64,000 nucleotides of DNA from Patellaria atrata CBS 101060 (taxonomy: Eukaryota), in the NCBI GenBank assembly GCA_010093705.1, contig MU006101.1:667673-731672 (forward strand), read 5' to 3'. Both the position numbers and the translations under genes were made by a program. Positions 19,380 to 60,554 of this stretch are shown piece after piece. The stretch's first letter is position 1. Each line of letters starts with the position of its first letter. The notes below the pieces were generated by a model. That model ran no database searches. It saw nothing but the letters and a program-made list of their open reading frames with translations, and was not told where the DNA came from.

Positions 19380-19908
19380 CTAGAATAGGTGCCTGTTAGA
19401 TGGAACTGGGGTTTATTGTCCTGATACAATATGTATTGTTTTCCAAGCTGAACGATTTTGTGGTTGGACGTTATCCTTTCGAATAATAGGGGTGGTATGA
19501 ATGACTCTTTCTCTTTTGTAGTATCATATTCTGTTGAAGTTTGAAAAGTTCTCCCGTGTAAAGTAGTTTGGTGAAGGATCTGACCACTTCTCTCCCTACT
19601 CTTGCACTCGACACAAACCTTTCAATACTTTTTAGTTACAGTAAGCGCCTGCGCTCGCCAGCAGCAGAAGTAAAAAAGAATAGTTTAATAGGCTCTATGG
19701 CTCTTACAAGAAATTCTCACTTACAGTAGGTGTTTCAGAATCGCAGACGTTGCAAATTGACTCATCATCGGAGCTCGCTTCCAACTTCCCGTCTTGTCCT
19801 ACTGTCCTCATCATCCATATCAACCACCACCTCGAGGTCCGCACAACAAAATTAATATTCAAAACTTCAGAACACACCTACAACGCTCAATTTCTTCACC
19901 ATTGCACT

Positions 19909-20946
19909 ATGAGCTCCTCCGGATCCCGCTGTCACCTTCTCTCCCTCCCACTCGAACTCCGTCTCCACATATACGACTACGCGCTCCAAGAATCCAATTG
20001 TTTAACCATTACCACCGCTGCGGTCCCTCCAACCGCAACCCGACGAACTCTCCCGCGCCATATCCCTGGTATACCGGGCATCCACGTCCCCATAATTCGT
20101 ACCTCGTACGATCTGTCCCTTCTCTCTTTAAACCCTCTTCCCATCCCAACCGACGAGGATATAAACACACCCCAAAAGTCTTCAGCACTGCCGCTTCCAG
20201 TGCAATCAGCGCTCCTAGATACCAACCACCAGATCTATGCGGAACTATCATCACATCTGGGCTTTCTTTCCGCGCGCGATGGCAAAGAGAACAGCTCGGG
20301 ACTAGCGCTATACGTCACATACCCTTACGGCCTCATAGCCCTCAAATCGCTATATCCCCACCTCCTCTCCCAAGCCCGCCGCATATATATCTGCGGCGCC
20401 TACAGTCCGACCTGGGACGATGAAGTCCCCACGGCCGGCGACTCGGGATACTTCTCCTCTTCATCCTTCTCGTCCAACCCCGTGCTAACTCTCCCGGCAC
20501 CCCGTACAATAGAAGGCCGACACGGCCTATTGACGCGCTCGAATATCCGCCGTAGAGCACGATGTCGAGATCCCACACCCGACCCACCAGCGCTATACTC
20601 GCGCGCCACGCTGACCGCTGCGTCTGCTGCCCTCGTCTCCCTCATCCGAACGGTGCTAAGTCCGATACCGCACCCCTCCCTCGCATTCCTCGAGCTCCGC
20701 GTCTGGTTGCCAGGTAGAGGATTTTGTGCAGGTAAGCTCTGGGGCGATTCTAAGAGTCCGGTCGTGGAGATGTTGGCGAATATCTGCGGCGGCAAGATCG
20801 ATATGGAGATCTGGCATGGGCGGGATGGGAACGGGGTCAGGTTGGCTGCGAGGCCGTATCCGAAGAGGAGGGAGGTGAGTAGTGTATGGAAGAAGTTGCC
20901 GCACAGAGTGGAGGACTGGATTGTTGATGAGAAGTGGGGAAGTTGA
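19909..20946 (+). CDS. Hypothetical protein with an N-terminal F-box-like motif
   Basis: MSSSGSRCHLLSLPLELRLHIYDY is a fungal F-box-like motif at the start of an intronless 345-codon ORF. Confidence 0.65.
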   Translation: MSSSGSRCHLLSLPLELRLHIYDYALQESNCLTITTAAVPPTATRRTLPRHIPGIPGIHVPIIRTSYDLSLLSLNPLPIPTDEDINTPQKSSALPLPVQSALLDTNHQIYAELSSHLGFLSARDGKENSSGLALYVTYPYGLIALKSLYPHLLSQARRIYICGAYSPTWDDEVPTAGDSGYFSSSSFSSNPVLTLPAPRTIEGRHGLLTRSNIRRRARCRDPTPDPPALYSRATLTAASAALVSLIRTVLSPIPHPSLAFLELRVWLPGRGFCAGKLWGDSKSPVVEMLANICGGKIDMEIWHGRDGNGVRLAARPYPKRREVSSVWKKLPHRVEDWIVDEKWGS

Positions 20947-21348
20947 CTTGGAAGATTGTCCCAGTGGGAAGAGGGAGAGTGAAGTGGAGAGTTTCCCGGC
21001 GGGTGTGAGCGGCGTTGTATGAAAAAGGGTAGGTTTGGATTGAGAAGGTTGTTGGGTGTATGATCAGAAGAGAAGTGTTGGGCGGTAATCAGTTCGGTAA
21101 TTCCCGATACACTCTGTATTGCCTGGCTGGAAAATTGCAGTTGATATTTCCTTTTGCATCTCTAGGTGTTGGAGCGGTAGCATAGCATCATCCTCATGTG
21201 GTCGACGACACTGATCCTAACGACGATTGGTAACAATAAATTCATCCCTTTCTAGTTTATCTATTTCAGATTTATCAAAATTAAACTCTTTAATATCAAT
21301 CTATTGCGCTGGTCGTATATCTTCGTCTCCTTGAGGGAAAAAAAAACT

Positions 21349-21522
21349 AAAAAAACTAAAATCACAAAACAATTAGGCCCGTAGGCCTCCTTGAACCCCC
21401 GGACGGGTTTTTGCTGCCGCTGCTCCTTTGACCTGAGGTTTACCGATAAACCCGCTTGGAGGGACTCGAACCGACGGGACCGTAGTCAGACTGCCTGACC
21501 GCTCTGCCACTAGTTAGTTGTG
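21349..21522 (-). ncRNA. Candidate RNA polymerase III-transcribed structured non-coding RNA (about 155-175 nt, not a tRNA)
   Basis: On the minus strand: TATA-like TTATAT at 21549-21544, A box TGGCAGAGCGG at 21509-21499, B box GGTTCGAGTCC at 21472-21462, terminal hairpin AGGCC-TACG-GGCCT at 21388-21375, then T4/T4/T7/T9 runs at 21369-21338. Confidence 0.65.
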
Positions 21523-21955
21523 GGATATTTCTTCCTCGGTTGCATATAAGGTACTGGACAGGAGCGGAAAGGGGTAATCACTTGTTGGGGGGGGGGGGGG
21601 TCCTGTAAATGATGTGAGAGATATTGCGGAATTGTCCCGGAGCTGGAGCTTCGGTGTATTAGATACGGGTTGTGCGTAATGTTTTATGGGTATTGACTCT
21701 TGAACGGTCTCCTATGGGAGAGATACGCCGTAATTACCATACAGTCAATTCATAAAAGCCCATATACCCCGGAGGCAAAATAGTAAATTATGAAATAGTG
21801 TTTCAATAATTATCTAACTATATACTAATTGTCCTTCTACTGCACTATCTTTATAGACTACAACCCATTGCGAAGCTTATGATCCACTTACAAGAATGGC
21901 GACAACCACACAATTCACCCATTTCACATCCTCTCCCTCTCATATTCGTCAATAC

Positions 21956-23002
21956 TCACCACTCTCTCATCTCTTTCACCGCTTCAACAATCTCCTTAAT
22001 CTCCGCCGGTCCAACCCTACAGCAGCGTCCCACCCCACTCACACCCCTTCTCATCCAATCCACCGCTCTCTCAGCCAACACATTCATTTTGCCGCTCCCC
22101 TCCTTCCAGTTTCTGGCCTCCGCATCCCAAACCTCACCCGAGTTTGTGTACACAAGCACAGGTTTTGTGGATAAGTGTACCAGCTCGTCTACAGCTGCCT
22201 CAGCGGCGGAAATGGAGATGCAGTTTATGCCTACTGCGACAACCGAAGCGTGAGAGTTCAATAAAGGAATGACAGTTGTTAAAGGGGTGCCGCCCGCGAT
22301 CGCCGCGTTAGCCGGGGTCGAGCTAGGAGAGAGTGTGAAGGTGCACCAGGCGGGGGGGGATACTGGGGAATTTAGAAGTAAGAAGGGAAAGCAACACTTG
22401 AATTTCCATAAACGAGGGGATAGTTTCGAGTGCGAGGAGATCAGGAAAAGAGTAAAACAGGATAGACATGCGAATTAGATGGAAATCTTCCAGGAAACCG
22501 AAAATGTCTTCGGAAGTCAGGGACGATGGGTTTGTGTAGGATCCAGTGTACTCAGCGCCATTAGCAAGGTATGCAACGTAAGGTCCTATACTTTCTGCTA
22601 GCAGACGCCTTCATTTCTTTTCACCGTTCCCCAGTTGCTGTTCCGCAAGTGTTCTGTTCTGCGCTTCGACTTCATCCCTAGCACCTTTCGCCAATTCTAC
22701 AATTCTACGCAGCAACAGTTCCGCGGTGTATCCCCCAATGCCCTTGTACTCGACTAGCCCACGATCACTAGCTTGGTATGAGGCTGTTGTGATGACGTCG
22801 GCGCTAACTTTATAGTAGCGTCTGTGGATCGTTTTGATGGTTTCGGGATGGGTTTGGATCGCGGTTGCGAACCAGAGTGGGGTGCTGAGGTCTACTCCAG
22901 CGGCTTCAAGTTCCGTCGCAAGTCCACCATCCAGAAAAAGGGGCCCGTTGTCGCGAAGATGGGAAGATATGGGATTATACGTATTAGGAGTTGGTGGAGT
23001 TC
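21956..23002 (-). pseudogene. Homocysteine S-methyltransferase (SAM4/MHT1/MmuM family) pseudogene
   Basis: LFLDGGLATELEAAGVDLSTPLW, DVITTASYQAS, SIGPYVAYLANGAEYTG, VAVGINC and VGRCCRVGPAEI (from GGCC). In-frame TGA at 22613-22611. The start ATG is out of frame, and the middle is disrupted. Confidence 0.8.
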
Positions 23003-23472
23003 ATGGGGGAAGCTTCTGTTCGAGGGTCCAGGTCATATTTGCTAATATGACCATTTACTAAGCGAGATTAGCATATATTCAGGAAAAGAGAATATGTATT
23101 TGCTCCATTATTATTATGCTGATCCAGCATAATACAGAGTATTTAGACGAAGACGTGAAGCCGGAATTGAAAACGGATCGGCCTCGGTTCGGGTCGGGAG
23201 ATGAATGACGTGAGGCGCAGGTGGCTAAATGGTTGTGGCTTAGCAAAGGATTGCCCTAAGGTAAGGTGCTGTCGTCATCGCCGCGTGAGTGCCCCTCGTT
23301 TCTAATTCGCGAGCCGACGGAGCCTTCATAAGCAATTGAGGCCTTGAATATTAAAGTCCTAGCTTTGGCTATCAATTCATATTCTTACTCCCCCATTCTT
23401 CACATCTACAAACAGCTTCAGCTTCTCCCAAATCATCACTTGTATTGGTCGCAGAACAATCAATACACCGAC

Positions 23473-57743: not shown

Positions 57744-60554
57744 TCAACCCTGACTCCCAACAGATCTCCCTAAGATCCTCATATTATCCACAAACCCTTC
57801 TACCATCCTCTCGAATTTACTCTCATTCGGATTCGTCTTTAACAAACGCCCTTGCTTGACCAGTTCCAGTACGTCAACTTCGATTTCCAATTCATGAGTC
57901 CTTGGTGTAGTCGATGGGTGATCGGTTTTCGTCACCTGCGTTAAGTCGATCTGATAGTTTTGGTGGTTATATGTCATTCGATCCTTGTACCGTGTGTTAA
58001 GTAGTCCGTTTTCTCTAACTTCCACTAAACCCGCGATATCACCATGGTACTTGACTTCAAGGCTTATACTGATACGGTAACTTATATGATCCGAGTGTGG
58101 GTTCCAGATATGTCGATCCATGAGGCGGACCTTGATAATTTTGGCCAAAACCTCTCCCTTCTCACCCCTAGTAACACGAATCCTCGGCTGCTGTCGGCTA
58201 TGAGCGTAGATAACTTGCTGGACCTGTGGTGGCAGTGTCGCGATCATTGCTGGGGTTGACTCAAAGAAAGAATCGGTCTCCCTGGTGTGACGGTAGACAA
58301 GCGGAATGCGGGGCACTTCGCGTGTCGGATCGCGCCGGCGTGACTCGTCATGTGCGCGATTCAGCGAAAAGTTCAGTTGTTTATGTTGCTCCTTTAACGT
58401 TGTCAGCATTCATGTTATGATTACTGATTTGGGTAAGTCGGATACTCACAAGTGACATGGAACTTTCAAATCTAATATACCGATTTTGTTCAGGATGAAG
58501 AATGGCTTCGTTGCCAATGTCCATCTCGAAAAGCTGCTGTGTCTGTTTATCAAACAGTTTTCCTAATTTAGCTTCGACCTCTAGTTGTCCGACGTTCGGA
58601 TCAAGAGTGGCGAGATCATTCCAGGCGACATGCTCGCAGAGAAAGTCACAAACTTGCCTAGTAAGCTGGTCATACGGTTTGATGCCGGTGATACTTGGTT
58701 CCCATAGTTCAATCTTCTTGACGGCTGTTTTCGGTTCTGGCTTCTTGATGAATGGATTCGGTTTTGGTTCTGTCACCTGTGGCTTTTGCTGGCCATTCGG
58801 GGTTTTGGTGTGTTGAATTGGTTGCTGCGGTGGTAGAGGTAGAGGAATATTAACAGGCGCTTGGCGATTAATAGGCCGAGGGTTTGCCCTTTTTTGAGCC
58901 CAGATTGGAACTGGGTCATTTCGTTTCCGCTTTCGAATGTTAGGGTTTAAAGTAGCTGGGGATGGGGATGGGTTAGTAGAGCTCTCTGGAGCTGAGACAT
59001 GTGGTTGAATGCTAGCGGCGGCGCTGTTGTTGCTGATAACGGGAGCCGGTTTCGATGGAAGAGGATGCGTAACTGCGTTGTTCGTGGAGGGAAGTTTCGT
59101 CGATGCGACGACCGTAGTAGGGGAACTGGAAGCGAGAGGAGCCATTGGCTTTGGATATGCGTGTGTATGTGGATGAGGAGATCTGAGTGAAATATGTTAG
59201 CAAATCGATTCTTAGACGGTCACCAGAAAAATAAAATAAAAAAATAAAAGACAAAGGAATTGAGTGGGAATTTCTTTTATGTGCGATGTGTGCGAAGAGT
59301 CACAAAGCGAGTAGGTGATTCCATGGTTCAAAGAGACGGGAGTGGGCCCCATGGAACGAAATCCACAGATTTCTTTACCAACACTCACCTGAATGATTGT
59401 AATCCATTTACATCTTGCTGGACCATAGTTTGATTATTTGTCTGTGCGACTTGAGTGTTCCACAGATCGTGACCGGAGCTCTTGACCTCTACCGACGACT
59501 GCCTACTTGACCCTCCAGCTGTCATTTTAGGGCTGTGAGTCTCATATCCATGAAAATTGACCCCGTTCGCATTTTGATGCACCTGTGACGGCGTAACAGC
59601 TTGATTCCAAATGTCCTGGGATGAGTGTCGCGTTTCTGCGGATTGTTGCCGACTTGGAACTTTTGTTTTTGGACTGACGCTCACAGTCCTCTCTCTTTCT
59701 CTATAATATTCACGCTCAATCGCCTCTCTATCGTTTGCCTGCCCATGACCTTCATACCCACCAGGGGAACTAGCGATTCTACTGGCATTATTCCCTGGTG
59801 TTCCCGCCGGAGGGCCATATGACGCCCCAGATTGACTCTTCGTTTGGCCATAAGGGCTAGGCGGTTCCATTGTACTAAATGTTGAGGTTCTTTGGTAATG
59901 CGCTGGGGGCCCCAGTGGAGTTCCCGGTTGTGAGTGTTGAGTCATACTCTGAAAGTGGTTCTGGTGACTAAGGGAGGAAGCTGACATCGGCGACTCTCGT
60001 AGCGAATGGGGTGTAATTGCGTGTGCGGAAGAAATCGACGGAGAAGGAGAGGTATGAGACTGGACCTGACCTAAGCTATTCGAGGGGGTGGTAAGAGGAG
60101 GGTATGGAGACGGCGTTGGACGGCTGAAAGAGTTCGAATGCGGTCTCGGAGCACCACCGACCGCCATGGTACTCTGATATGCATCTCGTTGGTATGGATG
60201 CGCTTGTTGGTTCTGAATCGGACTTGGGCTTGCGCGTTGAGGGAAAGGATATTGGTTTCCAGGCAATGAGGCGTGCTTTTGAAGTTGAGGGGAAAGATGG
60301 ACGGCCTCGTAAGGAGGTATAACAGAAGATCTTAGGTCATTCTGAGGTGATAGCTGATGTTGATATGGAGGTACAGGTTGTGGAGGTCTAGAATCGTATG
60401 TGTGATGGTATATGTTGGGTGAGGCATAAGTACCGGGCGAAGGGCGATGATGTGTATGAGGGGACGTGGCGACGGGAGGAGAGGGTCGAGGAGGTGCTTG
60501 AGGCTGACCTGTATTGGTCGAGGAGTCTATGTTGATAATAGACTTCAGATCCAT
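57744..60554 (-). CDS. CET1: mRNA-capping RNA 5'-triphosphatase (CYTH/TTM family) with long Pro/Gln/Ser-rich N-terminus, 3 exons
   Basis: VPIWAQK (Ceg1-binding motif), WEPSIT, LEVEAKLG, RFESSMS, RIRVT, RISISLE, RYKDRMTY, DLTQV and HELEIE. Confidence 0.92.

Follow-up and report, generated by a model that had tools for sequence, protein, structure and literature searches.

In the 64-kb stretch of DNA analysed here (referred to as the window), the segment 21520-21338 on the minus strand, about 183 bp in length, probably represents a tRNA-derived, SINE-like element of which a moderate number of dispersed copies exist in a filamentous ascomycete genome. Copies of the unit occur at other loci; the head is decayed tRNA sequence with an exact B box, and the T-rich tail at the other end differs in length between copies. 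Taken together, the short unit, the tRNA head with an intact B box, the unrelated body, the variable tail, the dozen or more diverged copies at different loci and the indel variants match a tRNA-derived SINE. The first-pass annotation of this DNA had taken the segment for a stand-alone, low-copy gene of a novel structured Pol III RNA. The anatomy that it described, i.e. a tRNA-like internal Pol III promoter followed by a non-tRNA body and an oligo-T end, is real, and as a tRNA-derived promoter, a body and an oligo-T are also the components of a SINE, this anatomy fits a SINE as well. What had been seen as a new RNA gene is most likely a copy of an ordinary SINE-type mobile element, and the tRNA-derived, T-tailed SINE-like family to which it would belong may not have a published name yet.

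Layout and position of the element

Reading the sequence again confirmed the minus-strand positions of all motifs reported in the first-pass annotation (TTATAT, TGGCAGAGCGG, GGTTCGAGTCC, the 3' hairpin and the T4/T4/T7/T9 runs). The features of the locus and the evidence on which each was placed are as follows:

21455..21520, minus strand: tRNA-derived head with the A-box-like word and the exact B box; similarity to tRNA
21509-21499, minus strand: A-box-like word TGGCAGAGCGG; sequence reading and motif scan
21472-21462, minus strand: exact B box GGTTCGAGTCC; sequence reading and motif scan
Between TGGCAGAGCGG and GGTTCGAGTCC, minus strand: 5-bp hairpin GTCAG/CTGAC; sequence reading
21372..21454, minus strand: body unrelated to tRNA, about 80 nt with the 3' hairpin included; repeated, without tRNA HSPs or an Rfam match
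21388-21375, minus strand: hairpin AGGCC-UACG-GGCCU at the end of the body; sequence reading
21338..21371, minus strand: T-rich tail, which likely serves as Pol III terminator and forms the 3' terminus of the element; T runs and T density
21369-21366 (T4), 21361-21358 (T4), 21355-21349 (T7) and 21346-21338 (T9), minus strand: T runs; sequence reading
21549-21544, minus strand: TTATAT in the 5' flank, 24-29 nt upstream of the unit start
19684-20946, plus strand: long ORF to the left of the element, without a Pfam match at E up to 0.001
Ending at 21956, minus strand: homocysteine S-methyltransferase gene, the right neighbour of the element

The element is located in the gap of about 1 kb that separates two convergent genes, a position for which we propose that an insertion does little harm. 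With its approximately 183 bp between the two flanking ORFs it falls among short non-coding units (about 100-600 bp). The further neighbours are intron-bearing genes for a GH47 protein, a deaminase, a WW-domain protein and a DAO oxidoreductase; these genes and their introns are in keeping with a filamentous ascomycete.

The 5' boundary of the unit was placed at about 21520-21525 on the basis of one other copy, which, from a loose end at 21510, continues with CAACTAAC and then diverges. TTATAT lies past this point of divergence and is thus part of the flank, outside the repeat. The word itself, to which the first-pass annotation had ascribed a TATA-like role, is present as described, but it does not belong to the repeated unit and is common, with 15 copies on the plus strand and 16 on the minus strand of the window (31 in total); it may or may not aid transcription of this particular copy.

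At the other end, 27 of 35 nt are T (counted over 21372-21338). A density of at least 26 T in 40 nt is reached by just two stretches of the window, counting both strands, and the tail is one of them. The other one, 59214-59267 on the minus strand, is the only stretch of the window as T-dense as the tail of the element. Since no tRNA-like head was found there on reading, this stretch is no further copy of the repeat and rather resembles a pyrimidine tract within a gene or next to one. 

The head is decayed tRNA sequence

We scanned metagenome contigs for the pattern of the two boxes, allowing a gap of 22-30 nt between them, and obtained at least 119 loci, those listed being nearly all prokaryotic tRNAs. 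Among the matches listed, 109 of 119 lie inside tRNAs called by ARAGORN, mostly those for Asn, Met, Thr and Trp, and the gap is exactly 24 nt in 99 of 119. In these tRNAs the two words occupy positions 17-27 and 52-62. The first word is preceded by TAGCTCA and corresponds to the GG of the D loop together with the 3' strand of the D stem, not to the A-box position 8-18. The head of the element resembles the best-matching tRNA (locus L023) with 82.7% over 52 nt (21511-21462), and all 20 BLAST HSPs, which derive from 19 of the 119 listed loci, are confined to 21511-21453. None of these 20 HSPs extends the likeness to the body or the tail, and none of the 119 listed tRNA-bearing loci shares the body. 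The mapping of the boxes onto tRNA positions and the alignment of the head demonstrate that the head is decayed tRNA sequence, and that the spacing of 26 nt between the boxes, previously held to speak against a tRNA, is no anomaly.

As the first word maps to tRNA positions 17-27, the "perfect A box" of the first-pass annotation has two possible readings: the exact word is present at the site, and on the tRNA-mapped reading the true A-box site is TAACT-AGTGG, with one deletion and one mismatch. The start of the unit at about 21520 reads CAACTAACTAG on the minus strand and is located 11 nt upstream of TGGCAGAGCGG, a distance that would also suit TGGCAGAGCGG as the A box. The unit has a tRNA-derived 5' head with internal A and B boxes, the A box being represented by two candidate words. 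Within the window the exact B box occurs once; with up to one mismatch it has two matches, and two or more were obtained in 29 of 100 shuffles. The A-box-like word is likewise unique in its exact form and has three matches with up to one mismatch, a number reached or exceeded in 3 of 100 shuffles.

A B-box-like word, GGTTCGAATCC, was also noted at 342-352 on the plus strand, with no tRNA called around it. About 25 nt downstream of it lies TTAGTTAGTT, which has a 9-mer in common with the reverse complement of the first bases of the element; this common 9-mer is probably due to chance.

We also compared the locus with known RNA families. ARAGORN called no tRNA in the window, and none at the locus when introns were allowed or thresholds were lowered to 80%. 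The search of the whole window against Rfam at gathering scores yielded no match, and the search of 21100-21800 at E values up to 10 gave no tRNA, SRP or Afu family. The latter search returned three chance-level matches (WsnRNA46, HSR-omega_2 and PreQ1), none of them on the head or the body; the PreQ1 match (21330-21356, plus strand) is the only one that touches the T tail, and it does so on the opposite strand. A tRNA gene was rejected as there is no cloverleaf down to the 80% threshold of ARAGORN or in Rfam at E up to 10, in agreement with the first-pass annotation, which had also stated that the locus is not a tRNA. SRP RNA was rejected as no SRP covariance model matched at gathering score or at E up to 10, and the resemblance to a shortened SRP helix 8 that had been suggested earlier thus found no counterpart in Rfam. 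The check for SRP and Afu families that the first-pass annotation had proposed left the head and the body without a family. A full-text search with a 25-nt string of the head retrieved no papers, the repeat databases Repbase and Dfam being beyond its scope.

Repetition of the unit at other loci

Copy number was assessed with two sets of DNA contigs (X1 and X2), both from the same organism and from one sample, that were placed on 19600-23200. The baseline depth is flat through both flanking genes, at 362.1 in X1 and 284.7 in X2. The summed depth amounts to 5791 (X1) and 3798 (X2) in bin 21294-21414 and to 8801 (X1) and 7536 (X2) in bin 21415-21535. Both bins that cover the element thus reach 13-26 times the baseline, i.e. 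13-26 single-copy equivalents, a value that gives the order of magnitude since summed contig depth is not the true copy number; on this rough figure the element has many dispersed copies. In total 58 contigs of X1 and 47 of X2 were placed, with 29, 20 and 9 of them (X1) and 13, 23 and 11 of them (X2) in the identity classes 99+, 95-99 and 90-95%, respectively. Details were listed for 16 of the 105 records, together with 30-nt consensus sequences of the loose ends.

A C14 homopolymer is located at 21587-21600 on the minus strand (G14 on the plus strand), 65-80 nt upstream of the element. The X1 contigs break within it and the depth of X2 is zero in bin 21536-21656; this gap is probably a sequencing drop-out.

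The contigs themselves reveal how the copies are arranged. Long contigs of the flanks end at the element, and dozens of contigs that are 90-99% alike continue from it into differing unique DNA. Loose ends were located at 21358, 21385, 21397, 21416, 21464, 21476 and 21510, with at least six distinct consensus continuations, and in two contigs, 2355 and 2378 nt long, 69 terminal nt match the body and the remainder is other DNA. Six of the listed records (4, 5, 10, 11, 12 and 13) span 21340-21455 with 1-8 differences and at roughly single-copy depth, demonstrating that the non-tRNA body is repeated and not the head alone. One form of contig skips 21432-21480 and some other copies have extra sequence ahead of the B box, variation of a kind that is typical of mobile elements. 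Another copy, at the loose end 21385, has a diverged hairpin followed by the retained motif ATTGTTTTG(Y)GAT(Y)TTA. In two contigs the T run beyond 21358 is longer and gives way to unrelated sequence, indicating that the T4 runs are part of the unit and that the terminal T run varies in length, as is usual for the tails of SINEs. The unit accordingly ends in a simple-sequence 3' tail, rich in T, that differs between copies. With 13-26 single-copy equivalents, and with copies that are 90-99% alike and have different flanks, the locus is not the low-copy gene that it had been taken for.

Such a repeated unit might also belong to a dispersed multi-copy family of genuine Pol III small RNA genes, now immobile, in which a tRNA-derived leader or promoter precedes a structured body of about 95 nt and a terminator of its own. 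Fungal 5S genes are dispersed, too. In line with a gene family, in every copy seen the strand that carries the boxes also ends in a T-rich, terminator-like tract, and an own Pol III terminator is as compatible with a multi-copy gene family as with a SINE. Furthermore, the 3' hairpin of one other copy (loose end 21397) reads AGUCC-UACA-GGGCU, so that pairing is kept while a G-C pair is replaced by U-G through changes on both sides. Like the motif retained at 21385, this is a single observation that was not counted as covariation, and a lone compensated pair, seen in one copy, is given no weight. The copies, however, are 1-10% divergent, with indels that strike the B-box region, and no Rfam family matches. 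In addition, the predicted structure is no more stable than that of shuffled sequences: for the stretch of 148 nt the MFE has a z-score of -0.42, with 63 of 200 shuffles folding as well, and for the body of 97 nt one of -1.44, with 19 of 200 shuffles folding as well, so that the pairings proposed in the first-pass annotation do not stand out from chance. Because a terminator is part of each copy and the present copy yielded no target-site duplication, we keep a family of small RNA genes among the explanations, as an improbable one.

The first-pass annotation had itself stated that many dispersed, diverged copies with target-site duplications would make the locus a SINE. The former were found; of the latter there is just the 4-nt TCCC that adjoins both ends of this copy, with nothing longer at the junctions. 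Among the words that both flanks have in common, none is longer than the 5-mer GAAGA; it is located off the junctions and is equalled in 1448 of 2000 shuffles. 

Repetition by itself does not reveal the class of the element, which might instead be a fragment or a solo terminal repeat of some other mobile element that contains a tRNA-like piece, such as a non-autonomous DNA element or a Helenus-type TRIM, in the latter case as a solo LTR. In fungi, tRNA-like A and B boxes are known from the LTRs of the Helenus TRIMs (PMC10886601), which occur in Pucciniales and some Agaricomycetes, have LTRs with tRNA-like Pol III promoters, are often found as solo LTRs and are accompanied by 5-bp duplications. 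The present element shares with them that it is a short repeated sequence with tRNA-like A and B boxes in a fungal genome, but it lacks TG...CA ends, having neither a TG start nor a CA end, and no 5-bp duplication was found. Nor is there a nearby partner with which it could form a TRIM pair, as BLASTN of 21300-21600 against the 64-kb window returned, apart from the query itself, a weak 38-nt T-rich match at 59226-59261 and no second copy. No terminal inverted repeat was seen by eye, and among fungi Helenus is reported just from Basidiomycota in the same paper (PMC10886601). We regard another type of mobile element as similarly improbable as a family of RNA genes.

The remains of a single dead tRNA gene, or a bare, ETC-like TFIIIC site, with a chance T tract downstream would explain a decayed tRNA head with an intact B box. 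A single decaying tRNA, however, would not be repeated at other loci together with body and tail, which makes this explanation highly unlikely.

The stand-alone, low-copy gene of the first-pass annotation, transcribed from a leader promoter in the style of SNR52 or RPR1, is the least probable of all. In yeast, SNR52 and RPR1 have a tRNA-like leader promoter before the mature small RNA; they are single-copy and conserved and have snoRNA or RNase P features. As in these genes, the A and B boxes of the element are located upstream of a non-tRNA body, here of about 95 nt, that ends at an oligo-T; TTATAT is found about 25-30 nt before the likely start, and no known RNA family matches. In contrast to SNR52 and RPR1, however, the element is multi-copy including its body, at 13-26 single-copy equivalents and with diverged copies elsewhere, it has no Rfam match, its folding is ordinary, and no C/D or H/ACA box was found in the body by eye.

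Proposed transcription and mobility, and related elements

For the SINE-like element that we favour, TFIIIC would bind at the B box within the unit as well as at the A-box-like word, and transcription by Pol III would begin near 21520, proceed through the 80-nt body and stop in the T7/T9 runs of the unit, resulting in a predicted transcript of about 170-185 nt. The reverse transcriptase of a LINE could then copy the RNA of the element into new sites, with the 3' hairpin and the UUGUUUUG...U-rich end as the part that the LINE enzyme would recognise. In Pezizomycotina, LINEs are typically of the Tad clade. Both transcription and retroposition are inferred.

The layout of the unit was compared with that of SINEs on record. 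Fungal tRNA-derived SINEs (SINE2 type) include MgSINE, Foxy, nrs1, SINE2-1_BG and AfuSINE2, and fungal SINEs range from 140 to 900 bp with 1-160 copies (PMC5063351). Like these SINE2 families, the element is short and non-coding and combines a tRNA-related head with A and B boxes, an unrelated body and a low to moderate number of copies. Its head has no cloverleaf, a property shared with AfuSINE2, the head of which no longer folds as a cloverleaf (PMC5063351). By eye, however, the element has no sequence likeness to the eight AfuSINE2 sequences of Table 1 of PMC5063351. With about 183 bp it is shorter than most named fungal SINEs, and its tail is rich in T.

SINEs that end in T are exemplified by the plant Au-like SINEs, with TTT/TTTTT tails, and by AFROSINE, with a (GGTTT)n tail; they are found in plants and mammals and are paired with LINEs of the RTE clade (PMC6007223). 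The present element resembles them in that its 3' end is a T run or a T-rich microsatellite on the transcribed strand and not poly(A); it differs from them in being fungal, and the likeness considered here is that of the tail.

The family might also be something other, or something more, than selfish DNA: some 20 self-terminating Pol III units of a Eurotiomycete-like fungus, each yielding a discrete RNA (about 180 nt) in which a conserved 3' hairpin precedes a U-rich end. These units could represent either a still active, undescribed T-tailed SINE lineage, in a group with few convincing SINEs, or a dispersed family of structured-RNA genes that is used by the cell. To this proposal we assign a small chance.

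The main value of the result lies in annotation, as it prevents the copy of a repeat from entering the record as a new RNA gene. In addition, it illustrates that an exact pair of A and B boxes with a seemingly wrong spacing can be the inner part of a tRNA sequence. A length of about 180 bp is below that on which repeat-induced point mutation acts, and if the element is an active T-tailed SINE its copies would fall below the range of this process. An active element would also add a well-defined SINE to the Pezizomycotina, for which published SINEs are scarce and, for the most part, present in very few copies (PMC5063351). Such copies could serve as insertion markers and would provide dispersed TFIIIC/Pol III sites of practical use.
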